Assembly (NCBI GenBank): GCA_003504275.1
Contig: DOAO01000006.1
Coordinates: forward strand, 66,588 to 130,587
Source: Patescibacteria group bacterium
Lineage (GTDB): Bacteria; Patescibacteriota; Minisyncoccia; Phycocordibacterales; UBA12445
DNA: 64,000 nucleotides
Direction of reading: 5' to 3'
Every line of letters starts with the position of its first letter. Within the stretch, counting starts at the first letter, position 1. The position numbers and the translations under genes are program-made. Shown one piece after another: positions 1-52,243 of the stretch. The notes under the pieces are model-generated. The model saw only the letters and a program-made list of their open reading frames with translations, did not search any database and was not told the origin of the DNA.

Positions 1-20
1 CATCGTTAGGGTTTTTAATA

Positions 21-85
21 CCCAAAGAGGGACAACGAAGCGACTTTTTGTTGCTACACAATAAGTCTCGTTGTCCCTCTTTGGG
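21..85. repeat. 18-bp perfect inverted repeat (hairpin)
   Basis: CCCAAAGAGGGACAACGA (21-38) / TCGTTGTCCCTCTTTGGG (68-85). Confidence 0.85.
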
Positions 86-134
86 CACAAAAATGTTGTC
101 GTTTATTGTCTTATTGTGTAGCTTGTTCATAATA

Positions 135-749
135 TCATTTTTTCTTCTTTGTCGCCCTCAAGATACGCTTAGCTTTTCCACTTAATAACCTAGCTATTCC
201 TATAAAAGATTGCTCTGCACGCTCATCCATCTTCAAATATCGCAAATATTTTTTTGTTGGCTTTCCTTTGTAATTGGTCCGTTTAACCTTCTCTCTCATT
301 TTTTCAATCTCTCGGATATTGATAACTCTGCCAAACGGCTTTGCTAGACCGCTTATATTTCTGCTTGAATAAGTAAGGTTGTAACAATGCCGACAGCCAA
401 ACAAATCACCATTTTTATAAAGGACACCGACACGCCTTCCACAATAGACACCATTCTTGTAAAGTAAGCACCTGAACCAATATCTACTTCCTCCGTATCG
501 GCACGGAGTTGTGGTGAGGGGCACCTTGTAATCAAAGTCCTCTTTCTCACTAGTATCTCTGCTTGTTTGTGCGTAGTAAAATCTAACAAACTTCTCATCG
601 CCCCAAAGATTTACTTCACAGCCAATACTTCCTTTGTCCCCATTAGTTCCCCATAAAATAGTCGTATCTTTATATTTACTATTTTTCATATCACGCAGTA
701 GCCACCATATTTCTATTTTCTTACACCAATCTGCTTCTGTTTTACTCAT
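135..749 (-). CDS. Hypothetical mobile-element protein with Cys cluster (zinc-ribbon-like)
   Basis: 204-aa ORF with CRYGGSRYWFRC...CGRR...CRHC, located downstream of the primase. Confidence 0.7.
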   Translation of the reverse strand: MSKTEADWCKKIEIWWLLRDMKNSKYKDTTILWGTNGDKGSIGCEVNLWGDEKFVRFYYAQTSRDTSEKEDFDYKVPLTTTPCRYGGSRYWFRCLLYKNGVYCGRRVGVLYKNGDLFGCRHCYNLTYSSRNISGLAKPFGRVINIREIEKMREKVKRTNYKGKPTKKYLRYLKMDERAEQSFIGIARLLSGKAKRILRATKKKK

Positions 750-780
750 AATTTTTTATAGTTGCCGAAATCAATAGAGA

Positions 781-2952
781 TTAGGAGTCATCTAACCTAA
801 TTTGATTATCTGATAATGTTTCAACCCCACACTCGTCATCACTATTGTTTTGCATTTGTTGTGGATTGAAAAAAGTAGACGGAGAAATAAGTATTTTTCT
901 CTTGTCATTTGGGTCTTGTTCTTGATAAATAAGCCCTGAGGTTTCAAGAATGGGAATAATCTGCTGTCGGAGCTGTTGAGCATCTAACATGCGTCCATAA
1001 GCCTTGTAGTGCTTCTCTAGGATGTCTTGGCGAGTGATACCTAGCTTTGGTGTCTCATTGAATACTTGCGACTGAAGCTCATTTTTTTCTTTGTATACAG
1101 GAACAATGATTTGAGTATAAATGTCGTAGATAAATGGAGGCAGATTGAGCTCTTGGCTGATTGATATTTTTTCCCAAAGTTTGAAAGCTTGCTCTATATC
1201 ATCATCGTTCGCTGTGATAGTGGACCCGTTTCGTTCTCTCCACCATAGATTAAGTAATGCGAACGACTTCACAAGCGAAATAAGTCTCTTTATGTCTCGT
1301 TGGTGGCGAGGTTGTAATTTCTTATCCTGCTTGAAAAATCTCTCAAAGATTTTTTCTTGATTTGATATCTTGATGTCATCAATGTGTTCTTGTCTGATTG
1401 CTTGGATACGGAGCTTGAGTTGTTTTCTCTTTGGGTCGTTATCAAGCCATGCTTTGTATTTTTCATTGTCTGCTTCTTTGCGGATTGTGTTTGAAATACC
1501 TGCGTGAATTTTTTCTTGATTGACTTCGGGGGAAAGTAAGATGAAGCGTGTTTGTTCTTGTGGGTCCATACGAAGCCCTGCCGTGCAGAATATAACTGAT
1601 GGATAGCCCTTGAGTGCGATTGTCTTTGTGCGGTTTCCACCTTTCTGGTTCTTGTCTGTTATCTTGGAATACATTATCTTTTCATCGTGTGAAAGAAATG
1701 AACGGAGCCCCTCTAGCAATCCTGTATGTGGCATATCTGTGAATATGAGTATCTTTCGTGAAAGGTCTACGGTAATTTCATTCGTTTCTTTGTTGTAGCT
1801 TCCTTGCTCGTGGAAGAAAGCCGTCTTTGAACAGTTGCCGAGCTTTATAACATCCTCATTCGGGAAAAGTTTTGATACTTCCAAAGCAATGTAGCTTTTA
1901 CCCGTGCTTGAAGGACTATTAAATGAGACATTGAATTGAGCATCTTCCGTATAAGCCGAGAGCTGACAGAGAAAAGTAACGATTTTATTTTCATTGTCAT
2001 TTTTAATTGTGAGCTCAAGTGCTTTTGATAGTTCCTCTGGTGTGAGGGATTGAAATTGAGATGGGTCAATGCGTTCAGGATATTCCTTTGCATATTTATC
2101 AAATAGGTCTGGGATTAAAAGGTTAAGTTTTGTTAAGTAGTCTGTTATGTCTCCGCCATCTCCGACTTCTTCGGGAAGCGTGATGTGATAGAGGTTCCGT
2201 AATCCAACATTTTCCAATATTTTAAGCACCTTTATGGACCCTTTTTTACCTGCCCCATCGTTATCAAAACAAATATAGATTTTCTGACATTTTCTGATGT
2301 CCGCATCAATCCATTCTTCCTTAAATGTGCCTGCCCCGTGCGTAGAAGTAAGAGCAAAGCACCCCTCTGAGATGAGAGCTAGTGCATCAAGTTCTCCTTC
2401 GCAGATAATTTGATTTTCTTCTGATGGTGCATACATTCCAAATAATTGTGCCTCTGCACCTTTTGGATATGTGATTTTTCCGTCGCCGTCTTTTGGGTCC
2501 TGTCGTAGTTTGAAGAATTTATAGCCATCATCGTCCATTACTGGAATAGTGATGTAATTCTTGCCGTAGAATGTGCCATAGCCGAGCCTGTAGCTGTCTA
2601 CAATGCCATTTATGATGCCTCGTTCGTTGAGATATGTTCGTATACGGTCTGGCATTTGCTCGTGGCATTTCTGCACGAGTTCATCTGTAAATCTTGGTCC
2701 ACGATATGATGATGCACGCTGTGGGGTAGTTTTATCTCCGAAGTGTTTTTGTAGCGTGATAATGTTTCCTTTCTCTCCGCATTTTTTGCACTCGTATTGC
2801 GAAGTGTCTTTGTTGAAGTAGAGATGTGCTTCGCTTCCAGTGCTGTTTTTATCGCAGTCATTAAAAATACATTTGGCGATAAGTTCCTGTCCGTTCTCAT
2901 GATGGGTGATACCTTTTTGTGAGAGATATTCTGCTATGTTTATTTTCGTCAT
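781..2952 (-). CDS. Primase-ATPase (Zn finger + TOPRIM + P-loop domain), element replication protein
   Basis: N-terminal C..C/H..CKKC zinc finger, TOPRIM motifs ICEGELDA and CFDNDGAG, Walker A-like SPSSTGKS. ATG at 2952 preferred over the ORF-track start at 3000. Confidence 0.85.
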   Translation of the reverse strand: MTKINIAEYLSQKGITHHENGQELIAKCIFNDCDKNSTGSEAHLYFNKDTSQYECKKCGEKGNIITLQKHFGDKTTPQRASSYRGPRFTDELVQKCHEQMPDRIRTYLNERGIINGIVDSYRLGYGTFYGKNYITIPVMDDDGYKFFKLRQDPKDGDGKITYPKGAEAQLFGMYAPSEENQIICEGELDALALISEGCFALTSTHGAGTFKEEWIDADIRKCQKIYICFDNDGAGKKGSIKVLKILENVGLRNLYHITLPEEVGDGGDITDYLTKLNLLIPDLFDKYAKEYPERIDPSQFQSLTPEELSKALELTIKNDNENKIVTFLCQLSAYTEDAQFNVSFNSPSSTGKSYIALEVSKLFPNEDVIKLGNCSKTAFFHEQGSYNKETNEITVDLSRKILIFTDMPHTGLLEGLRSFLSHDEKIMYSKITDKNQKGGNRTKTIALKGYPSVIFCTAGLRMDPQEQTRFILLSPEVNQEKIHAGISNTIRKEADNEKYKAWLDNDPKRKQLKLRIQAIRQEHIDDIKISNQEKIFERFFKQDKKLQPRHQRDIKRLISLVKSFALLNLWWRERNGSTITANDDDIEQAFKLWEKISISQELNLPPFIYDIYTQIIVPVYKEKNELQSQVFNETPKLGITRQDILEKHYKAYGRMLDAQQLRQQIIPILETSGLIYQEQDPNDKRKILISPSTFFNPQQMQNNSDDECGVETLSDNQIRLDDS

Positions 2953-3027
2953 ATATTGTAATTTATTAGTGATGAATGATGATTGGTATGTCTTTCGCAA
3001 ATGAATTGTTTGCGAGGCTGTTTTACC

Positions 3028-3255
3028 CTATTTTTCGGTCGTCCTCAATGGGTCTGAGAGATTGTCCAAGTGTGCCAACACAGCCCTTTTTTCTTTTTTT
3101 ACATAATCATCTTTATCAACTAACTTTTGAAACCAGCGATGAGTTGTTTGTTTGTTAAAACGCTGTCCTTTTATGGTTCTGACAAAATAAGCGTAAGAGC
3201 TCAAATTTGGATTTTTTTCTGCAATGTTATTGAATCTTCTTTGAAGTGATTTCAT
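3028..3255 (-). CDS. Hypothetical protein
   Basis: 75-aa ORF in the operon; its AT-rich leader (ATAAATTACAA-TATATG) matches the primase leader. Confidence 0.65.
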   Translation of the reverse strand: MKSLQRRFNNIAEKNPNLSSYAYFVRTIKGQRFNKQTTHRWFQKLVDKDDYVKKEKRAVLAHLDNLSDPLRTTEK

Positions 3256-3281
3256 ATATTTGTAATTTATTGATGAGTAAT

Positions 3282-3572
3282 TTATTCGGAAGAATGGATA
3301 CGATTTTTTAACATTCTTAAGGCATCAAAATAAACTAAAGATTTTATTTCTAGTCTTCCATTCCAGTGGTCATCAATATCTTGTTCAATTCCGACCTCTC
3401 GTTTGAATATGAATAAAACTTTTCGCTGGTCTTGCTTATCTAAGGCGACTAGCTCAAACCCACGAGAAACTAACGAACTGCTCAAACCCAAATCTTGAGT
3501 CTGAAAATACTCTTTTGAGTTTTCCAAAGAGGTATATTCAAAATTATTTTTTTCTTTTTTTGTGTTTTGCAT
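3282..3572 (-). CDS. DUF5659-like small phage/island protein
   Basis: Pattern TQDLGLSSSLVSRGFELVALDKQDQRKVLFIF...LKNRI recognised from memory; ATG at 3572. Confidence 0.65.
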   Translation of the reverse strand: MQNTKKEKNNFEYTSLENSKEYFQTQDLGLSSSLVSRGFELVALDKQDQRKVLFIFKREVGIEQDIDDHWNGRLEIKSLVYFDALRMLKNRIHSSE

Positions 3573-3712
3573 ATAGTTTTGCTTAATAATTTGTAATATT
3601 GAGAGTGTTCCTGCTCTCAACCTATGTGCTGAAAAAACAGTGAAAAAGAAAAAACCGCTATATTTCAAGCAGTTTTTGTCTTTATTTGTCGCTGAAAACT
3701 TCAGTCAATCAA

Positions 3713-6160
3713 TCAAACTTCAGTGAGGTATTGCATTGCTCTCGTATCTTGGATTTCAAGATTTCTCAACTCTTTTTCTGGGGTGATTTTCAACAAAGGA
3801 TTGTATCCTCGCACTGTCTTATCAAAAGGTATTGGTTCTTCTGTTATTTCAAAATACTCACACAATGCTTTTGAGAGAGCTGACTTGTATGTTTGAAATA
3901 AACCTTTCTTTTCCTTGCTCCTTGAAAAAGCATTTTTACAGAAATTGAACATATTATCCGGGGTCAAATAAAAATCTGTATTGCCTTGTCTTTTAGTTTT
4001 AGTAAATGAGAGTGCTTGCAGTATTTTCCAAGAGACATTATCTGATTTTTTGAAGCCGAAGATTTCGTAATCTCCTTTGTTTTTTAGTTTTCCTTTTACA
4101 AGTATTTCAATGTTGTTGTCATCTGTGAACTTAATTTCAATATCGGACCAGCTCAATTTTGGTTTTTGAGCCGTATCGGCTTTATTGTTTTTGTGAAGAT
4201 TACTTTTCTTTACAGAAAACATCCTTTCTTTGTTTCTGTTTATGAGCTCTTGTTTTTCATCAGTTAGCTCAAAAGCTCTAGTGATGGTTTCTTTTGCTTT
4301 TTTCACATCTCCTTTTTCTTCATAAATCAAAGCAAGATTGTTCAATATTGAAGAACTCGTGTCCTCAATGCTCTCGTATACTTTTTGAGCTTCGTCCACT
4401 CTTTCTACCTCGTTGAGAGAGTAGGCAACCTCAAACCTTCTGTCAAAGAAAGTGTATCCGTCCTCAAGTTCTTCTGGTGCAAAGAAAAGCTCCAGCGTTT
4501 GGCCTTCAAGCAAGGAATAAATATCAGAGATTGTGTTGTGTTGTTTTTTCTTGAAAAGTTCTTCAATATCCTTGCTGAACATTTCCTTGAAATATCTTTC
4601 TGCCCGCACATCACGGCTTGGCGGTTTTGCTATTTCTTCTTTGATAGTTGTTGCGTAATTATACAAGAAATCGTCACTACATTCTGCAATGTCTGTATAA
4701 ATCCACTCCTTTCCTCCAGAGAGAACATATTTGAGCTTGTAGACAACGGCATTGTCATACTGTTTTATACGATAATACCCGTGAGCCAACAGATACAGGT
4801 CAAAGAGAGTTTCTTTTGTATTTTTCTTTATTTCGTTGAGTAGTCCTTCAATCTCTTTTTTGTTATTTTCTGACAATACAGTTTCGTCTTGGTAAAGAAA
4901 CTTCTTGAAAAGATAAATTGCCGTTAATTTCGTTTTATCGCTGATATTATTTTTGATTGCATACTGGATTTCATCAAGGAAGAATTGTTTTGTAGGTAGC
5001 TCCATTTGGAATACAAAATAATCATTCATTGATATGCTCTCAATTTGTTTACACATCTGGGATAGGGTGTTTTCTATGCCGACATCGTCCTTGAGTTTCA
5101 GATAGATAGAAAACATATAAATATGGCATCCCAAGAGCAATTCTGTGTCGCCGATATTTTCTATAGTTTCCTTGAAATATTTCAAACTCTCACTATATTT
5201 TTCTTGCTCGTAATAAAGAACGCCTCGCAAATATGAGTTGATGTTGTCGTTCAAATAGTTCCACGGAGTATGTATTTCTGGTTCGTTCTGTAGTATCTCC
5301 TTACACATATCAAACTGTTTGCTTTTCAAGAAAAAGACAAAAGATAGGCGAACAAAGTCGTTTGAGTAGATAGCTCTTTTTAATTCTTCATAGTTCTCCT
5401 TATAAAATTTTTTGAAGTTCTCAACCTCTTGATTATCTGATTTTGTGTAGTAATCAAAAGTTGCCCTGAGAGCTGGCTCGTATTTGGAGTTTTTAGTCAA
5501 AACTTTCTTTGCAAGATTGAACCTTTTGAGTAGACTGGTTTCTTTTTCAAAATAAAGCCCAATGTATTCTTGTTTTGCGAGCATCAAGTTTTCTGGCTTT
5601 TCGTCGTAAAGGTTTGAGAGTTTTCTGAGAGCAAATGACTTGTGCCAGTAGTTATCATCGTAGTTCGTGAGCGTATCATCAAGGTTATTTTTCATTAAAA
5701 TAAATAAAAGATTTCCTTCTATTTTTTGAGTTGAAACTTTGAGAAAATCTGAACCAGTCAAGAAACGTAAAATCTCTGATTGAGGAGATTGGATACTTTC
5801 AACATAGATATGAAATAGGGTTTCTTCGTAATCTTTTTTTATTTCTTCAATAGAAATTGTTTTTGTTTTTTGGATATGAAAATTACCGTTCAGTAGGTCC
5901 AGTGTTGTCATCGTGTGTGTGATTTCAAACTTGTTATTTTTATCTTTTTTATATTCTTGTTTTGTAACGTCTATGAGTAAATAATCTATATCATCTTTTC
6001 GGAGCTTCTCTATTTCTTTTTTGTCTAAGACTCCGATTCTTCCCAAGAAATCAATAGAAAACCAAAGCATGTTTTGGTCGTTTGAGAAATTTATTTCATC
6101 AAAGAATGATTTATCATCATTCTTGTCTATTGTTTTATCTACTGGTTTTATTTTGGGCAT
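3713..6160 (-). CDS. TPR-containing protein with a possible C-terminal DNA-binding domain
   Basis: TPR-like helices (YLRGVLYYEQEKYSESLKYF; ILNNLALIYEEKGDVKKAKETITRAFEL); ATG at 6160. Confidence 0.7.
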   Translation of the reverse strand: MPKIKPVDKTIDKNDDKSFFDEINFSNDQNMLWFSIDFLGRIGVLDKKEIEKLRKDDIDYLLIDVTKQEYKKDKNNKFEITHTMTTLDLLNGNFHIQKTKTISIEEIKKDYEETLFHIYVESIQSPQSEILRFLTGSDFLKVSTQKIEGNLLFILMKNNLDDTLTNYDDNYWHKSFALRKLSNLYDEKPENLMLAKQEYIGLYFEKETSLLKRFNLAKKVLTKNSKYEPALRATFDYYTKSDNQEVENFKKFYKENYEELKRAIYSNDFVRLSFVFFLKSKQFDMCKEILQNEPEIHTPWNYLNDNINSYLRGVLYYEQEKYSESLKYFKETIENIGDTELLLGCHIYMFSIYLKLKDDVGIENTLSQMCKQIESISMNDYFVFQMELPTKQFFLDEIQYAIKNNISDKTKLTAIYLFKKFLYQDETVLSENNKKEIEGLLNEIKKNTKETLFDLYLLAHGYYRIKQYDNAVVYKLKYVLSGGKEWIYTDIAECSDDFLYNYATTIKEEIAKPPSRDVRAERYFKEMFSKDIEELFKKKQHNTISDIYSLLEGQTLELFFAPEELEDGYTFFDRRFEVAYSLNEVERVDEAQKVYESIEDTSSSILNNLALIYEEKGDVKKAKETITRAFELTDEKQELINRNKERMFSVKKSNLHKNNKADTAQKPKLSWSDIEIKFTDDNNIEILVKGKLKNKGDYEIFGFKKSDNVSWKILQALSFTKTKRQGNTDFYLTPDNMFNFCKNAFSRSKEKKGLFQTYKSALSKALCEYFEITEEPIPFDKTVRGYNPLLKITPEKELRNLEIQDTRAMQYLTEV

Positions 6161-6300
6161 AGTGTAATTGTAATTTATCTTTAAGCATCCTAGCATCTTT
6201 TACTATGAAAATTAAGTATTTTTTGTTACACTAGAACAGTCTTAAAAGACACACAATTTAGTTACCTAAGGTCTACTCAAAATAGATACGGTACAAATAA

Positions 6301-6446
6301 ACCCCATCCCTGATACTGAACCCCGTGTTCAGCTACTCAGGGATGGGTCATTGTCGGGAAACTGATAATGGAGTCGCAAGGCTCAAGCTGGCACGGGGTT
6401 CTGTGCTTTCTCGGTCCAGCTTTATTAGACAAAACCCATCCCTTTT
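6301..6446 (+). promoter_or_regulatory. GC-rich structured 5' leader of mod with alternative pairings
   Basis: 6303-6313 pairs 6337-6347 (11 bp). 6340-6348 can instead pair 6434-6442 next to the ATG. 6318-6327 pairs 6392-6401. GAAA- and GCAA-looped hairpins lie between them. Confidence 0.5.
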
Positions 6447-8204
6447 ATGTCTACAAACAAATTACAATCAATAGAAAAAGCTAAAGGTAGAGCTATGCTC
6501 GTATGGGCTGGCAAGAAGCCTTTAGAGAGCATTGAATACTATCCTGCTCAAGAGAAAGAAATATACGGCAACAAGAAGTCGCAAGATTTTAATAAATTAT
6601 TTTGGGGAGATAATCTCCAAGTTCTCGCACACTTACTAAAAGAGTATCGTGGTAAAGTTGATTTGATATATATAGACCCTCCGTTTGATAGCAAGGCGGA
6701 TTATGTTAAATCAGTAAAAATGAAAGGTGAAAAGGTTGAGGGGGTTGAGCAAGGACTGCTTGAAGAAAAACAGTATGGCGATATTTGGGAAAAGGATGAG
6801 TATCTTCAATTTATGTATGAGCGTTTTTTAATTTTGAAAGAACTTTTGTCTGAAAATGGAAGTATATATTTACATTGTGATTGGCATAAAAACTCCCATC
6901 TTCGCTTGTTAATGGATGAAGTATTCAGTGAAGATAATTTTAGAAATGAAATTATCTGGCATTATTTTGTATCTGGAAAATATCCAAGTGAGTTTGCAAA
7001 AGACCACGATAATATCTATGTATATTCAAAAAGTAAAAACTCCACATTTAACTATGAGAAACAAGTAGACAAATATCTATATTATGAAAAGTTTTACAAT
7101 AAACAAATTGTTAAAGGAAAGGATGGAAAAGAATACTATGAATATAATGGAGAATTAAGAACGTTTGAAAAACAGGTTTCTGAAACTTGGAATATAAATA
7201 AAATTAAAAGAGACGGCAAAGAAATTGTTGGCTATCCTACACAAAAACCAGAAGAATTACTAGAAAGAATAATTAAAGCATCTTCAAATGAGGGCGATGT
7301 GGTCCTTGATTGTTTTTGTGGCTCTGGAACCACGATGGTTACCGCTCAAAAATTAGGTCGCCGATGGATTGGATGCGACATAAATCTCGGAGCGATACAA
7401 ACCTCCACAAAACGCCTCAATCAGATTATTGAGGAGCAGAAAAATGCTCTCGGTTTCAAAGTGCTCAATGTGAATGAATATACAGCGTTCAAAAATGAAC
7501 TTGAAGCGAAAGATATTGTGATGGAAATGTATGGCGTGGAGCCAATGAAGCGAAGTTATTTTGACGGAGTGCTTGATACTTCGTATGTGAAAGTGATGCC
7601 AATGAACAGGGTCCTCAACAAGCTAGATATGAAAACCTTGCTCAAGAATGTGAATGACAAGCTCGCTGATTTTACAGTCAAAAAGAAGTCCAAATCTGGC
7701 GAGGCGGTGTATGACGAGGGTGTGCTTGTCATCTGCTCTGGTATGGACCTTGAAGTTGCCGACTATCTCAAAAAAGAGAACAAGACGGGCGTGAAGATTG
7801 ATGTCCGAGACATTGCCACAGACAAGAAAAATCTCGTCTTTAAGAAACCACCAGAGGCAAATATTGAGGTGAAAGTAAAAGACAAAAATCTCTCCGTGTC
7901 GCTCAAAGAGTTCTATTCGCCTATAATGATGCGAAAATTAGAGATTGAAAACAGTAAAGCTCTCAAGAAAGAATACCAAGCAAAAGTTGAAGATTTCCGC
8001 CAGATTATTGATAGCGTGGCTATTGATGTGGATTATACAGGCGACCTTTTTAATGCCGAGATTATGGACCTGCCGACAAAGCGTGAGCTCATCAAAGCTG
8101 ACTACTCTTGGGGATATCCAAAGAAAGGCAAATACACTGTGGCAGTCAAAATCGTGGATGTGCTTGGCGAGGAATACTTTGAAACTTTTAGAGTAAATGT
8201 ATAA
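6447..8204 (+). CDS. mod: Type III R-M amino-methyltransferase (Mod), beta class
   Basis: Motif IV IDPPF precedes motif I DCFCGSGT; YPTQKPE; next to res. Confidence 0.88.
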   Translation: MSTNKLQSIEKAKGRAMLVWAGKKPLESIEYYPAQEKEIYGNKKSQDFNKLFWGDNLQVLAHLLKEYRGKVDLIYIDPPFDSKADYVKSVKMKGEKVEGVEQGLLEEKQYGDIWEKDEYLQFMYERFLILKELLSENGSIYLHCDWHKNSHLRLLMDEVFSEDNFRNEIIWHYFVSGKYPSEFAKDHDNIYVYSKSKNSTFNYEKQVDKYLYYEKFYNKQIVKGKDGKEYYEYNGELRTFEKQVSETWNINKIKRDGKEIVGYPTQKPEELLERIIKASSNEGDVVLDCFCGSGTTMVTAQKLGRRWIGCDINLGAIQTSTKRLNQIIEEQKNALGFKVLNVNEYTAFKNELEAKDIVMEMYGVEPMKRSYFDGVLDTSYVKVMPMNRVLNKLDMKTLLKNVNDKLADFTVKKKSKSGEAVYDEGVLVICSGMDLEVADYLKKENKTGVKIDVRDIATDKKNLVFKKPPEANIEVKVKDKNLSVSLKEFYSPIMMRKLEIENSKALKKEYQAKVEDFRQIIDSVAIDVDYTGDLFNAEIMDLPTKRELIKADYSWGYPKKGKYTVAVKIVDVLGEEYFETFRVNV

Positions 8205-8206
8205 AT

Positions 8207-8653
8207 ATGCAAAACGACACTATAAAAATAAGCAAACAACTCTTACACCAAGCCGAGCTGATGGGTGGAAATAGCGAATACGCTAAGGCTATTACAAAAC
8301 TCAACGAAGCAATCAACCATCTTGTCTATTTTTCACCACCAGAAGAGCAACAACACGAAAAAATATCGTTGTTACACCAGTGTTTCTTTGACGCAGGACG
8401 GTATCATTCTGAATTAAAACATTTTGCCACTGCGATAGAAAATTTCATTACAGCAAAGCTATTTGCTGTGTCAAAAGATAACACAGACCAATTAGATAGA
8501 TGGATTGACGGGTCTTTAGATGAGTATGAATTTTTGATACAGGAGCCAGCCACGAAAGATATCGCACTTTCTGAATTGGATGAATTGCAAGACAAATTGT
8601 TTAAAAATAACATACCCGTTCTACCTCGTATTGAGAAATTGTTAAAACAATAA
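8207..8653 (+). CDS. Helical/TPR-like hypothetical protein between mod and res
   Basis: 148-aa ORF tightly coupled to both neighbours (TAATG overlap with res). Confidence 0.65.
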   Translation: MQNDTIKISKQLLHQAELMGGNSEYAKAITKLNEAINHLVYFSPPEEQQHEKISLLHQCFFDAGRYHSELKHFATAIENFITAKLFAVSKDNTDQLDRWIDGSLDEYEFLIQEPATKDIALSELDELQDKLFKNNIPVLPRIEKLLKQ

Positions 8654-11196
8654 TGGAAAATCTATTTTTACAGAGTATAAAAGTCAAAGTATCCGAGTGG
8701 CGAGAAAACGGGTATCAAGGAGGCTTCAAGGAGAGCATAAACATTTTGAACTATGTGAAGCGTGTCGGCTTTTTACACGAGCCACAAATTGAAGCTCTTG
8801 AAACTTATATCTATATCAAGGAGGTTTTGGAAAATAAGCCAACGGGTGAAATTTTCAAAGACGCTTTTTCAAAGAAATCCGATTTGCTTCGTTCTCTTGG
8901 TGTGCCAGAGAGAAATATTTCGGACATTATGGAAGCCGATAATCGTGACGAGCAAATAACTGAAATCATTAAGGAAAAGTTTGGTTCTCAAGATTACGCA
9001 AATCAAGTTTATGCTCTTACAATGGGTTCGGGTAAGACAATTTTAATGGCGACTTTTTTAATATACGATTTCGTTCTTTCATACTATCATCCAGACGATG
9101 CACGCTTTGCAAAGAATGCTCTAGTCTTTGCTCCCGATACGACCATTATAGAGAGCTTAAAAGAGATAAAAACTTTTGATTATTCAAGGGTCTTGCCAAA
9201 GGAATATCAGAATATTTTGCTTAACATTAAGTATCACTACCTAGAGAGCACGGAAACAGGGCTCTCTCCGATTGGTAATTACAATGTCATCGTTTCAAAC
9301 TCGCAAAAGATAATTCTCAAAACAAGAAATAGTGATACGGACAATGGGGTAAAAAAGTTATTTGGAGATAAGGGGGAACTAGCAAAGCGTGAAGTAGAAA
9401 ATGCCCGTCTGCGTGCTATCCGAGAGCTCAATAACCTCATTATATTTGTAGATGAAGCTCATCACTCTTATGGTGTGAACCTTGAGGGTGCTTTGAAAAA
9501 GACACGCCAAACAATTGATTACTTGCACGGCAATACTCCGCTTGTGGGTGTTGTAAATCTCACAGGAACACCATATCTCAATAACAGGATGATAGACGAT
9601 GTTGTATATCACTTTGGGCTCAAACAAGGTATAGAAAAAGGCATCTTGAAACAAGTGAAGATATTGGATTTCGGAGAGGTCCGCTCGGAGATTTTCATTG
9701 AAGAAGTGCTCTCTACATTCTGGTCCGAGTATGGAGAAAATCGCCTCGAAGGTCGTCTGCCTAAAATGGCTTTCTATGCTCCTAATATTGATAATTTACA
9801 AAATGAACTCAAGCCTCGTATTGAGAGAATTCTCGCTGAGATGGATATACCTATTGATAAAGTCCTTGAGTATCACACCGAAGCAGAAGACAGTAAAGAT
9901 GAGTTTCGAATACTTGATACTATAGATAGTAAGAAACAGTTTGTGCTTCTTGTTGGTAAGGGGACCGAAGGATGGAACTGTCGCTCATTGGTTGCTTGTG
10001 CTCTCTATCGTAAGCCATCTAGCTCAATTTTTGTGCTCCAAGCATCTACACGCTGTATGAGGTCCATTGGAGATAATTCTACACGAGCCCATATATTCCT
10101 CTCAAAAGAAAACTATAAGGTATTAGATAAAGAGCTTAAGAACAACTTTGCTTCAAGCATTCAAGACATCAACAACCAAGAGCAAAAGAGCTTCGAGTTT
10201 GAAATTAAAGTTGAAAAGAAAAAGACCATCAAGGTAAAAAAGCTCATCCGAGATATTATTTCCACACAGGCAACAAATACAGACGATATCAAGATTGATA
10301 TTAAGAAATATAAACCAGAGAAATACGAGCACTATATCTTGGGTTCAGAACTTGTTGTAGATACTTCTGGCAAGGCAATTTTTAAGCACGATACGCTTGG
10401 CTCAAAGAAAATAAAAGAGAGTAATTCATATACCTATTATGAAATCGTAGAGCTTATCAATCGCTACACACATTTGCCATGTTTAGCGATAGGTAAATTA
10501 TTGGAAAATATCGGATTGTCTAGGAATGAGCTAGCAAGTAAAGTGAATACGAGTGTGGGGTTTTTACCCTTCATTATTCAATCTGTTCTTGAAACTGTTT
10601 ATCAGTATACGGAAACAGAAACAGCTACCGAAGAAGAAATTGAACTTACTAAAGAATACCCGTTTAAGATGAGCCGAGAGGAGGGTAAAAAAGCCCTTGT
10701 TGTATTTAAAGAAAAAGAGGAAGCAGACGGAGCTACAAGTCGTATCGGTTTTCATATCAACCCTTATAATTTTGACAGTAGCGATGAACGGGACCTGTTC
10801 CGACAATTCCGACAGCTTCTGGTAGATAAAGAGACGATTAAGGATGTTTACTTTAATGGTGGAGTTACTACCATTGCTCACAATGATTTTTATGTTGAAT
10901 ATTGGAACCCTACAGAACAGCGTATATCCAAGTATTTTCCAGACTTTTTGATAGAAACTGATAAGGGTCGTTTCTTGGTTGTAGAGGTAAAATCTGGGTC
11001 CGAAAAGACAGAGTATGAAGCAAACAAGAAACGCTACAATGGGACCAACACATCACTCTTTAATGAGGTATATGCTAAAGAGGTTGGCTTCCTAGATTTT
11101 CAAAAAGTGAATAAGGATTTTGAATACAAAGTCATCTTTGACGCTCACTTGCAAGAAAGACAGCGAGAGCTCTTTGAGATGATTAGAACTCTGTAA
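8653..11196 (+). CDS. res: Type III restriction subunit (SF2 helicase + PD-(D/E)xK nuclease)
   Basis: TMGSGKT Walker A, DEAHH, EGWN, C-terminal PDFL...VEVKS. Confidence 0.88.
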   Translation: MENLFLQSIKVKVSEWRENGYQGGFKESINILNYVKRVGFLHEPQIEALETYIYIKEVLENKPTGEIFKDAFSKKSDLLRSLGVPERNISDIMEADNRDEQITEIIKEKFGSQDYANQVYALTMGSGKTILMATFLIYDFVLSYYHPDDARFAKNALVFAPDTTIIESLKEIKTFDYSRVLPKEYQNILLNIKYHYLESTETGLSPIGNYNVIVSNSQKIILKTRNSDTDNGVKKLFGDKGELAKREVENARLRAIRELNNLIIFVDEAHHSYGVNLEGALKKTRQTIDYLHGNTPLVGVVNLTGTPYLNNRMIDDVVYHFGLKQGIEKGILKQVKILDFGEVRSEIFIEEVLSTFWSEYGENRLEGRLPKMAFYAPNIDNLQNELKPRIERILAEMDIPIDKVLEYHTEAEDSKDEFRILDTIDSKKQFVLLVGKGTEGWNCRSLVACALYRKPSSSIFVLQASTRCMRSIGDNSTRAHIFLSKENYKVLDKELKNNFASSIQDINNQEQKSFEFEIKVEKKKTIKVKKLIRDIISTQATNTDDIKIDIKKYKPEKYEHYILGSELVVDTSGKAIFKHDTLGSKKIKESNSYTYYEIVELINRYTHLPCLAIGKLLENIGLSRNELASKVNTSVGFLPFIIQSVLETVYQYTETETATEEEIELTKEYPFKMSREEGKKALVVFKEKEEADGATSRIGFHINPYNFDSSDERDLFRQFRQLLVDKETIKDVYFNGGVTTIAHNDFYVEYWNPTEQRISKYFPDFLIETDKGRFLVVEVKSGSEKTEYEANKKRYNGTNTSLFNEVYAKEVGFLDFQKVNKDFEYKVIFDAHLQERQRELFEMIRTL

Positions 11197-11200
11197 AAAT

Positions 11201-11389
11201 ATGCAAATATCAGACAAACATTTCTTGGAGTTTAAGAAGTTAATGAGAGATAAGGTGGGGGAGGAAAAATACAATAAAATGACAGAACAAGAACTCCTTG
11301 CAAGTGCAATCGCCTTAATAACTATGATGAAAGCGGTCTATAAACCAATCACAAAAGAGGCTTATGAAAAATACAAGAAAGCAAATTGA
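11201..11389 (+). CDS. Small helical hypothetical protein
   Basis: 62-aa ORF directly after res; resembles ORF 11563-11802. Confidence 0.6.
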   Translation: MQISDKHFLEFKKLMRDKVGEEKYNKMTEQELLASAIALITMMKAVYKPITKEAYEKYKKAN

Positions 11390-11396
11390 AGATAAA

Positions 11397-11555
11397 ATGC
11401 CACAGTGTAAGGAGGCAGATTGCAATGAGCTATTAGTTGCTGATAATGACGGATATTGTCTTCGCCATATTTGTCCGCCTCCCATACCTTTGATACTTCA
11501 GTATCTTAATGAACAAGATACAAAGAAAAAAGAAAAGAATGAGGAAGTAAAATAA
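11397..11555 (+). CDS. Small Cys/His-rich hypothetical protein
   Basis: MPQCKEADC...GYCLRH; ATG at 11397 follows the previous stop. Confidence 0.45.
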   Translation: MPQCKEADCNELLVADNDGYCLRHICPPPIPLILQYLNEQDTKKKEKNEEVK

Positions 11556-11562
11556 AAAAACT

Positions 11563-11802
11563 ATGGTCCATATATCTCCAGATACTGTTGAGAGGTTCAA
11601 ACAGATATTCAAAAGAGAATATGGTGTTGAATATTCTGATAGTGAAGCGTGGGAAGCTACTCATAATCTACTAGGGGCTTTTAATATTTTATTAAAAGAA
11701 GACAAAAAACAACATCCAGAGAATTATAAGAAGAAAATATATAGTGATGACGGAGGTGGGGTGATTATACAGACAAAATCTGATAAAATAATCTCGGAGT
11801 AG
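11563..11802 (+). CDS. Small helical hypothetical protein
   Basis: 79-aa ORF (ISPDTVERFKQIFKREYG...EAWEATHNLL). Confidence 0.6.
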   Translation: MVHISPDTVERFKQIFKREYGVEYSDSEAWEATHNLLGAFNILLKEDKKQHPENYKKKIYSDDGGGVIIQTKSDKIISE

Positions 11803-11981
11803 CCAGAGTTGATATTTTATAGCTTCGGTTATAAACGGGGGTTGTGAATTAAGTCCGTCATCCGCCTCGTGCGGTGGATTTGTCCGAAAGGGCAGAGGGT
11901 AGCGGTGAAAAGCGATAACTGGCTTACGGGTGTATCAAGAGTGTTACTCTGACAAAGAACTTCCATCTGTGGGAGTTTTTT
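11794..11981 (+). ncRNA. Candidate structured small RNA with intrinsic terminator
   Basis: TG-A-TAAAAT upstream, closing stem AGCCAG/CTGGCT, TTCG and GAAA tetraloop hairpins, terminator AACTTCCA...TGGGAGTTTTTT. Confidence 0.4.
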
Positions 11982-12090
11982 GTTTTATAATTACTTTGTT
12001 TTATCCGCTTCATACTCTCGCATAATGTGCATTAAGTAATCACACTCCTTCGCAAATTGGTTCCAAAATTGGCACCCTAAGTCCACAAAC

Positions 12091-12114
12091 AAAATCCGCT
12101 TTAGCGGATTTTTT
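12091..12114. terminator. Intrinsic terminator hairpin
   Basis: AAAATCCGCT-TT-AGCGGATTTTTT. Confidence 0.7.
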
Positions 12115-12115
12115 A

Positions 12116-12373
12116 GTGGGCCGTAAGTAAGCAAACTTCTTTGCTTACGTCAGGACTCGAAAAGGCTCTCCCTTATTTCTGAAGATTTTTTAATCTGAAG
12201 AAATGGGAAGCCTATACCGTCCCCGTAGGGGAAGAGTCCTACCGTACAGGACTCGAAAGCCGCAGTCGGGCCCCTTGCTGAAAGCAAGGGAGACGAGGCG
12301 GGGTCGCGAGTACTTTGATTTATGTAAGGCGAAGCCGATACAGAAAGCTTAGTAACTCGTGACCGAGTCCTGT
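12116..12373 (+). repeat. tRNA-associated structured repeat (antisense tRNA 3' end + module A + module B)
   Basis: GTGGGCCGTA-[hairpin]-CAGGACTCGAA ... GAGGCGGGGTCGCG ... CGTGACCGAGTCCTG; homologous to 33465-33692 and to the minus-strand array at 51179-51758. Confidence 0.8.
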
Positions 12374-12408
12374 TAAAAAATCAATCGATGTCAGCATAAA
12401 TAACTTTT

Positions 12409-12672
12409 TCAGTTCCCCTTGATTTTAAAATATCGTCTTAGTATTAAAACAACTCCCAAAGTAAAAAGCATGATGCCTAACACTTTATAATTAGTATGGT
12501 AATCAGTATACCCACCATAATTATCAAAGGGGTTGCATAGTCCCGAGCAGACATAATTAGCGGGGCGTAAAAAATTATATGAGAAAATTAAAACACCAAA
12601 GAGCACTAAACCATCTGGCAAATATTTTTTTATAATTGAAGGTAAGTTTTTCATATCTTTATTATTGTACAT
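12409..12672 (-). CDS. Small membrane protein
   Basis: 87-aa ORF with two hydrophobic segments. Confidence 0.55.
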   Translation of the reverse strand: MYNNKDMKNLPSIIKKYLPDGLVLFGVLIFSYNFLRPANYVCSGLCNPFDNYGGYTDYHTNYKVLGIMLFTLGVVLILRRYFKIKGN

Positions 12673-12786
12673 TAATACGTGGCATAAGCCCAGGGTTGTT
12701 TGTTGTGTAATAAAACCCCCTGCCTTTTCCCTTCCCTCAAAACTTTTGCTATACTATTAAAATTAATTATTAGATAAAAGATATAT

Positions 12787-13461
12787 ATGGAGGTAGAAAA
12801 AACAAATAATAAAAACAAGATTATTGTCGCGGTGATTTTGGTTATTTTGGTGATAGGAGGCTATTTTTATTTTGGAGGCAATGATATGGGTGATAACGTG
12901 GCTGTTGTAAATGGTGAGAGTATATCCATGTCGACATACAATACTCAGTTAGACAGCGCTATTGCTCTATATAAATCGCAGGGCCTTGATATTACAAATG
13001 CGGACAATGTTTCTAGAATCAAAACAGAAGTTTTGGGTGGTCTTATAGATAATGAATTAGTATCACAAAAAATATTAGAGGCTGGAATAAAAATAAATTC
13101 AGAAGAAATAGAGAGACAATTCCAGTCAATTTTAACACAAACAGGTGGAATTGAGGGACTTAATGCTGAATTAGCTAAAAATAATATTACAGAGGAGCAG
13201 TTGCGAGAAAATATATCTAAACAACTTGCTGCTCAGGCATATCTGACACAAAATGTTGATATGAAATCAATAACCGTTAGCGACGATGAAGTTGTGCAAT
13301 TTTACTCAAATTATAGTAAGACCCAGGAGTCTGTACCGACACTAGAAGAAATCGGTGCTCAGATAAAACAGCAGATTGTTTTAAATAAACAACAGGCAAT
13401 GGTCAAAGAGTTTATTGCTTCTCTTAGGACAGGTGCAAAAATAGAAACAATAGCTATTTAA
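12787..13461 (+). CDS. SurA N-terminal domain / PrsA-like membrane-anchored chaperone
   Basis: N-terminal TM helix, VAVVNGESI, VLGGLIDNELV, C-terminal FIASLRTGAKIE. Confidence 0.8.
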   Translation: MEVEKTNNKNKIIVAVILVILVIGGYFYFGGNDMGDNVAVVNGESISMSTYNTQLDSAIALYKSQGLDITNADNVSRIKTEVLGGLIDNELVSQKILEAGIKINSEEIERQFQSILTQTGGIEGLNAELAKNNITEEQLRENISKQLAAQAYLTQNVDMKSITVSDDEVVQFYSNYSKTQESVPTLEEIGAQIKQQIVLNKQQAMVKEFIASLRTGAKIETIAI

Positions 13462-33229: not shown

Positions 33230-33304
33230 GGGCCGTTAGCTCACTTGTCCCGATATTTTGTAAAAATATCGAGGATCCTCGACCCGAGGGGTCGGGAGTA
33301 GAGC
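33230..33304 (+). pseudogene. Duplicated 5' fragment of tRNA-Ala interrupted by a palindrome in the D-loop
   Basis: GGGCCGTTAGCTCACTTG-[TCCCGA...TCGGGA, 50 bp]-GTAGAGC. Confidence 0.85.
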
Positions 33305-33349
33305 ATTGTAGTGGTGGAAGTGATAGTATCATTTATATTGATATATATT

Positions 33350-51884: not shown

Positions 51885-52121
51885 TTATGTTAAAGATTTT
51901 AAAAATTCCTTACCACATCCCGTCTTTAAATACTTCTCATGATTTCTTGCCTCTTGCCTTGTTATAAACTCTTTTGTGAATATTACCCTAAATGGTCGAT
52001 AACTTCTAGTGGTTTTTTCTTTGCCTGTGTTGTGCTGATCGAAACGCCTTTTTAAATTATTAGTAAGACCAACATAAATATAATTTTTACTTTCACTTTT
52101 AAGTGCATATATAAAAAACAT
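51885..52121 (-). CDS. Small GIY-YIG nuclease
   Basis: FIYAL...YVGLTNNLKRRFDQHN.G....T..YRP...EA...EKYLK. Confidence 0.92.
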   Translation of the reverse strand: MFFIYALKSESKNYIYVGLTNNLKRRFDQHNTGKEKTTRSYRPFRVIFTKEFITRQEARNHEKYLKTGCGKEFLKSLT

Positions 52122-52126
52122 AATTA

Positions 52127-52182
52127 TGAGTCTATTGCGCCTGTCTGCCGGTAGGCAGGTCTACCAATTCCGCCACCGCGGC
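52127..52182 (-). pseudogene. Duplicated 5' half of tRNA-Leu (up to the anticodon) with a 20-bp palindrome insertion
   Basis: Identical to 51845-51880 apart from CCTGTCTGCCGGTAGGCAGG inserted at 52140-52159. Confidence 0.9.
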
Positions 52183-52243
52183 ATTATTCAGTTGTTTAGA
52201 CAATATACAAGAAAGGGGTAATTTTTGCAAAAATAGAATACTT

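Follow-up and report, generated by a model that had tools for sequence, protein, structure and literature searches.

A tRNA-Ala(TGC) tail module that was most likely cut off from its gene by a serine-recombinase island in a Patescibacteria genome

A repeat that holds antisense copies of a tRNA 3' end, and that stands in a Patescibacteria genome with no tRNA beside it, is interpreted here as the tail module that belongs to tRNA-Ala(TGC) and that a serine-recombinase island most likely split off from this gene by inserting at its last six bases (probability about 0.9). The locus is a tRNA-targeted serine-recombinase island, i.e. a known design in a new setting, together with a module family. The window is the whole stretch of DNA that was analysed (64,000 nucleotides); positions without a contig label refer to it, and the genome to which it belongs (G000) comprises 887 kb and is 98% complete. 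The positions of the features are summarized in Table 1.

Table 1. Features of the island, of its two ends and of the repeat module
Feature	Position	Strand	Remarks
tRNA-Ala(TGC)	C1:64960-65033	+	left island end, outside the window
Serine recombinase gene (515 aa)	C1:64971-66518	-	Pfam Resolvase and Recombinase; left island end
Right 12 kb of the island	1..12080		left end outside the window
Toprim-domain protein (739 aa), likely the element's primase	781..3000	-	domain match
LOOT RNA motif (Rfam RF03000), island cargo	6263..6384	+	53.1 bits; gathering score 46.4
Type III restriction-modification cargo	6447..11196	+	methyltransferase 6447-8204, 148-aa ORF, ResIII-domain protein 8653-11196
Stranded 31-codon recombinase C-terminal tail	11991..12086	-	starts VDLGCQFWNQFAKEC; in-frame join expected in the excised form
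GGTTCC of the element arm, putative distal (ZD-type) integrase binding motif	12059..12064	+	16 bases from the core
GTCCAC core, direct repeat of the six-base 3' end of tRNA-Ala(TGC)	12081..12086	+	far island junction
Displaced tRNA trailer	12087..12115	+	terminator-like: an A-rich arm, then a 9-bp hairpin and a run of T
First antisense copy of the tRNA 3' end	12116..12161	+	acceptor part with A>G at position 70; 25-base hairpin insert; exact T-arm part
Module core type 1	12162..12241	+	contains two hairpins (loop of one: C(GTA)G); partial sense copy GAGTCCT closes it
Second antisense copy	12242..12257	+	16/16 identical to tRNA-Ala(TGC)
Module core type 2	12258..12373	+	GGGGTCGCGA ... GTGACC, closed by sense copy GAGTCCTGT
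SurA-like host gene	12787..13461	+	homologue downstream of tRNA-Ala(TGC) in same-genus genome G002

The repeat and its tRNA gene

The motifs that the initial annotation had read in the repeat were all recovered in place (GTGGGCCGTA at 12116-12125, followed by a hairpin from 12126; CAGGACTCGAA at 12151-12161; CCGTACAGGACTCGAA at 12242-12257; and GAGTCCTGT, which pairs with the antisense copy, at 12365-12373), and the same architecture was found, as described there, 3' of the Ala(GGC) and Leu(CAA) genes. The architecture was kept and the start of the element was corrected; it sits behind GTCCAC at 12081-12086, which had not been flagged. No tRNA is located at the repeat, in agreement with the initial annotation: ARAGORN and Rfam gave two tRNA genes in the window only (33350 and 51796), no cloverleaf or Rfam family was found at the repeat itself, and the search of 11300-12800 against Rfam at E<=1 returned two matches far below threshold. 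The segment 12081-12380 folds far above shuffled sequences, both as DNA (z -10.4) and as RNA (z -10.9).

The sequence TTCGAGTCCTGTACGG occurs twice in the genome, once in the repeat and once in tRNA-Ala(TGC), which is the sole tRNA of the genome that matches the 16-mer (two matches in the window at <=2 mismatches, with 0.00 expected from 100 shuffles) and is one of the 18 of 43 tRNAs without an adjacent module. The gene lies on the plus strand, ends 1,555 bases left of the window and stands at the far end of the island, where a tRNA had been predicted. The search of the genome for the repeat sequence bore out the location and not the suggested identity, which was Val, on the ground that an implied G3:C70 pair argued against Ala. 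The G3:U70 pair marks alanine tRNAs; tRNA-Ala(TGC) ends TACGGTCCAC with G3:U70 intact and matches the repeat, and Val with G3:C70 was therefore rejected. The suggestion had arisen because of a single A>G difference, the apparent C70, in the first antisense copy; the second copy is identical at 16 of 16 positions and does not cover position 70. The change recurs at two other loci (L015 and L059); since it was seen in none of the 29 adjacent modules counted, it is treated as drift. That the repeat records a lost or unassembled tRNA with a true C70, of Val or of another kind, is scarcely credible: the first copy does read GTGGGCC, and the identical change at the two other loci would fit; however, the matching tRNA-Ala(TGC) is present at the island end, both tRNA-Val genes differ in their T-arm ends and have modules of their own, no tRNA in the genome ends in TACGGCCCA, and the genome is nearly complete.

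Island boundaries and contents

The island comprises 13,640 bp (G000 C1:65034-78673) between tRNA-Ala(TGC) and the repeat. The tRNA is intact at one end, GTCCAC is repeated 13,640 bp further on as a short core of 6 bp, and the integrase gene lies at the island edge. Over 282 bases the end of a related island (L057) shows 86.5% identity, which stops exactly at the core. A 14,017-base contig from the probable source run spans both junctions with zero differences. No empty-site or circle joint was found in the contigs of four runs, contigs being a form of data from which rare forms are dropped; a scan of viral contigs gave no relative, and the GC content of the island (0.371) equals that of its flanks (0.368) and lends no support to an island.

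In related islands (L032, L039, L046), the Toprim-domain gene and the ORF at 135-749 adjoin the recombinase gene. A TPR protein is also encoded in the island; the main text of PMC5737381 makes no mention of the LOOT motif. Two ORFs by the far junction (11201-11389 and 11563-11802) have no homologues in the fetched loci and no PADLOC family, and the latter has no Pfam family, so that no directionality factor can be proposed from among them. The right end of the island (11820-11990) is a GC-rich, hairpin-like, non-coding segment that is shared with L057 and gave no Rfam family above threshold.

A module directly behind tRNA-Ala(TGC) was found in three of three same-genus genomes, which is the island-free arrangement; separation of the tRNA from its repeat by integration, as had been supposed initially, is from the junctions the most likely history. 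In one of these genomes (G002, L065:1709-5330), tRNA-Ala(TGC) and its module are followed by 3.5 kb of small genes, by a broken far-end remnant and then by SurA; owing to this older remnant beyond the module, G002 is not a clean empty site, and an older integration appears to predate its module. The synteny with SurA was seen in this one of the six relatives' stretches checked.

The reading in which the module belongs to the arm of the island (as a spare inverted att copy) and arrived together with it, and is not a displaced host tail, is very improbable and has been largely refuted. The module does contain an inverted copy of the host att arm, and the first hairpin of the trailer is closer to those of other families (G044, G049, G016) than to the same-genus trailers. 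However, the identity with L057 ends exactly at the core, most other junctions then run into unrelated host DNA, modules stand behind 25 of the 43 tRNAs without any island, and a similar core type 1 lies directly behind the tRNA in same-genus genome G001 (80% over 97 bases).

A recombinase gene that spans its own attachment site

The recombinase contains an N-terminal resolvase catalytic domain (PF00239, E 1.4e-31) and a recombinase domain (PF07508, E 3.6e-09). Its frame stays open as far as the tRNA, from whose antisense strand the final 20 residues are read. The tail that is stranded at the far end of the island matches the natural full-length tails of L039, L040 and L044 as well as the far-end tails of other islands; a conserved 31-codon tail in this position places attP inside the recombinase gene. 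Related loci are mostly labelled Patescibacteria. The comparison covered 111 of them (31 from genomes and the best 80 of 522 from metagenomes), 13 without the 3' end of the gene; at 69 (duplicates included) of the 98 with that end, a tRNA on the opposite strand overlaps it. Four close homologues on contigs labelled Bacteroidota (L040, L044, L047, L058; 59-74% identity) carry the full-length tail with no tRNA nearby; in some of them, extra sequence is inserted between the codons of the core and the helix of the tail. At L057, L195 and L054, far-end tails are followed by recombinase-like 3' remnants, or two tails stand in a row; these arrangements are read as signs of tandem integration at the same tRNA.

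In the structure model of L040 the natural tail forms a confident helix (residues 245-269, block pLDDT 77-91), and the tRNA-derived C-terminal end was modelled at pLDDT <50. The best Foldseek matches were serine integrase structures, including 9dxd and 4kis, at TM-scores of only about 0.27; a coiled coil is present, and the zinc cysteines are missing in most of the alignment (A1). As the sequence shows, the crossover falls within the recombinase gene, the integrated enzyme ends in the antisense-tRNA residues, and the helical tail of 31 residues remains at the other island end; this swap likely lowers or changes the activity of the recombinase after integration. It is rather unlikely that the tail is kept only for the DNA binding motif that overlaps it and that the protein is unaffected by the swap. 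In favour of this reading, W-N, the tail residues that are conserved best, are encoded by the GTTCCA motif itself, and McMurdie et al. give a trivial reading for DsiB (PMC3146451); against it, an amphipathic helix pattern is retained through the remainder of the tail, also in homologues that lack W-N, the tail models as a confident helix, and the swapped form of the Mx8 integrase is reported to be less active (as cited in PMC4701971).

Probable site recognition and a possible terminator

On the left arms, the T-loop GGTTCG of the tRNA lies 11 bases from the core, and GGTTCC of the element arm 16 bases. For the LI integrase, the distal motif is described as shifted by 5 bp between attP and attB (Rutherford et al., PMC3783163); the two spacings differ here by 5 bp likewise, and the T-loop is the presumptive distal binding motif of the host site. 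The 16-base spacing was first seen in tails that had been found by peptide similarity, and was then built into the far-end search pattern. No inverted distal motif is visible on the right (opposite) arms, so that the site departs from the symmetric att site of the textbooks. As the host right arm is, in addition, free to vary, recognition of the site may be one-sided. A search for attR-like patterns gave matches in 50 of 401 genomes (including G257, which was left out of the later analyses), compared with 12 control matches; since several of the matches are ordinary coding genes, the tally is not a count of islands. Within the recombinase gene (L001:5092-5145), an inverted repeat that spans about 50 bp is made up of GGTTCC and the inverse GGAACC; in most relatives GGTTC is again present at the equivalent place, synonymous positions included, and the repeat is a possible accessory binding site.

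The antisense strand of the recombinase gene holds a hairpin and T run directly behind the tRNA. These beat synonymous-codon controls (p<=0.05) in 17 of 61 loci, compared with 5 of 61 for an upstream segment, and the hairpin shows some covariation (71% paired, up to 66% in slid controls); RNAalifold gave no consensus for it from 22 sequences, because the stem occurs in two registers.

From these observations, the following series of events is proposed. The module would have formed behind the tRNA by local copying of the 3' end of the gene, as at most tRNA genes in this genome. A circular element would then have recombined with the tRNA end, where the T-loop is likely the distal binding motif of the host site, leaving the tRNA intact and shifting everything downstream by 13.6 kb. 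After the exchange of recombinase tails described above, the antisense hairpin and T run in the 3' end of the recombinase gene may have replaced the displaced terminator, a replacement that is plausible only.

The module family and its stranded copies

An antisense copy of its own T arm was found behind 25 of the 43 tRNAs in the genome, the 18 without one including tRNA-Ala(TGC). The module-like copies number 26, of which 21 lie within 900 bases of a tRNA; two of the other five are at the locus described here, one is behind the tmRNA, one is a probable chance match and one is a probable second stranded module on contig C10. The module on C10 (L222, C10:83200-83410) ends in the T-arm sequence of tRNA-Ser(TGA) and lies 22 kb behind that tRNA, which has no module; between the two is a restriction-rich island that encodes a further serine recombinase (C10:62988-64310). 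The antisense copy of this module has decayed, a search for a core repeat of >=8 bases gave none, and the module is a probable second, older case. The copy at the tmRNA (L223, C3:8400-9100) follows a tmRNA-like gene that was missed by ARAGORN and identified by eye, and its module carries an antisense copy of the 3' end of that gene.

Copies of 5' ends were observed as well. Before both tRNA-Ala genes (window 33230-33312 and L001:4838-4920) stands a copy of the 5' end of the respective gene, broken by a near-identical hairpin insert, and at tRNA-Ala(TGC) a small GIY-YIG gene stands before this copy. At tRNA-Leu(CAA) (window 51885-52185, minus strand), the gene follows a 5'-end copy that contains a short palindromic insert, and a GIY-YIG gene of 78 aa.

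The islands with a tRNA number 63 after removal of duplicates; a script flagged 28 far-end candidates among them, and about 25 were accepted. Full stranded modules that match their own tRNA are present at about four of these 25 located junctions (L034, L049, L059, L134), and one further module is partial. An exact adjacent T-arm copy was found at 5 of 29 tRNA-Ala(TGC) loci of relatives, which are kin and hence not independent. From the module counts at filled loci and at the loci of relatives, modules neither prevent integration nor are needed for it.

Prediction of the target tRNA from a stranded module succeeded in three of five tests in other genomes (G335, G289 and, with one mismatch, G332). 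It failed in G349, where no matching tRNA was found in the 90% complete assembly, and in G094, where the antisense half is unlike the RNA that precedes the module. In G094 (L215:1400-1600) the module stands behind a tmRNA-like end, and its sense half does match that RNA; the mismatch of the antisense half suggests that modules can move between loci. In G289 the same trailer stands behind a tRNA-Ala end at a contig end and behind the far-end site on another contig (L220, L201), as would be expected either of a mixed population of filled and empty sites or of a regenerated trailer.

The module as folded single-stranded DNA or as RNA

Among the perfect hairpins of the modules, C(GNA)G triloops were counted 22 times on the strand of the tRNA and a single time on the opposite strand (background 9 and 11), these loops being copies of a few module types and not independent. 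The bias towards the tRNA strand points to single-stranded DNA in folded form. GNA triloops are described as very stable DNA mini-hairpins, one quoted RNA counterpart (a tetraloop) being much weaker (PMC13037366). In the 29 adjacent modules, mismatches affect 1 of 319 positions of the T-arm copy and 25 of 232 positions of the acceptor copy. No wobble-type (G:U) bias was found among the mismatches of these modules (A>G 0/159, C>T 4/117, G>A 3/187), in a test that admitted <=2 mismatches per part and ignored indels.

The modules might instead act as RNA, in which case a read-through transcript would pair with the tRNA 3' end, for processing or termination, and the stranded copy would be dead. 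Such a role is unlikely, though it accords with the constant orientation of the modules along the tRNA, with the better conservation of the T-arm copy than of the acceptor copy, with a fold that is equally good as RNA and with the decayed antisense copy of the probable older case on C10. On the other hand, the absence of wobble-type bias, the excess of C(GNA)G triloops over GNRA tetraloops (22 and 8) and the exact T-arm copies of stranded modules (window, L034, L049, L059, L134) all speak against it; the latter fit pairing inside the module, and the conservation of the T-arm copy is accounted for by its pairing with the sense copy of the same module. The module is, with odds of clearly better than even, a folded single-stranded DNA element; it is most likely a REP-like non-coding element that is copied by a trans-acting ssDNA enzyme and persists without a neighbouring tRNA. 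Candidate enzymes encoded in the genome are small GIY-YIG genes and two Y1-family genes (PF01797).

Comparison with known systems

A displaced tRNA 3' fragment marks the far end of tRNA-targeted genomic islands, and here, too, a tRNA-like piece stands at the far end. In contrast to such fragments, the direct repeat comprises only 6 bp, and the long tRNA-like pieces are in inverted orientation and broken up by hairpins. Because of this orientation, and because they occur at tRNAs without an island as well, the long copies do not qualify as a classical displaced fragment, which is a direct repeat of the tRNA 3' portion.

There is a close likeness to DsiB of the Dehalococcoides ssrA islands, described in PMC3146451 as a serine recombinase of about 500 aa at the island edge, whose 3' end overlaps the att site and whose frame reads into the antisense strand of the target RNA gene; its authors suggest that a complete integrase exists only in the circular form or in tandem arrays. 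Unlike DsiB, for which that source gives the tmRNA as the target, the recombinase here targets the 3' end of tRNA-Ala (in relatives Glu, Arg, Leu, Val and others); no partner like DsiA was seen, and the stranded tail is identifiable and conserved. An att site inside the integrase gene, with a C terminus that is altered by integration, is also reported for the serine integrases of streptococcal rumA ICEs and for Myxococcus phage Mx8 (PMC4701971); the Mx8 integrase, however, is a tyrosine integrase, and rumA is a protein gene. With the LI and A118 phage integrases as described in PMC3783163 are shared the resolvase and recombinase domains, a modelled coiled coil, a short core and a putative distal motif 5 bp nearer to the core in the host site; unlike in these, the motif was found on one arm only, and zinc-binding cysteines are missing from most of the subfamily alignment.

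The modules resemble REP-type hairpins and the Ssn/SRM repeats of PMC11893778 as non-coding, multicopy DNA hairpins in a genome with GIY-YIG and Y1 genes, and differ from them in that each copy carries sequence from its own tRNA. The degenerate SRM consensus gave no match in 12081-12380 and seven elsewhere in the genome. In literature outside subscription journals, no description of the modules or of a tRNA-targeting CPR integrase family was found.

Conclusions

The stranded module is in itself ordinary, an island having parted a tRNA from its trailer, and is still useful as a natural experiment; it indicates that tail modules are copied locally, persist without the tRNA and do not block integration. 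By the three successes in five tests given above, stranded modules link island ends to their target tRNA in fragmented assemblies.

A joint reading of the locus, put forward tentatively and at less than even odds, would combine a large Patescibacteria clade of serine integrases (with the universal tRNA T-loop as distal motif, a free second arm, a direction switch by tail swap and a built-in replacement for the tRNA terminator) with an independent ssDNA-folding element that repeatedly writes inverted copies of tRNA 3' ends behind the genes; stranded copies would serve as address labels that connect island ends with their tRNA across contigs. As part of the same reading, exchange of the tail for antisense-tRNA residues would stand in for a separate directionality factor. 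Should the tail swap indeed replace a directionality factor, and should a tRNA T-arm suffice as the host site, the integrase family would be of relevance to biotechnology and to the control of directionality.
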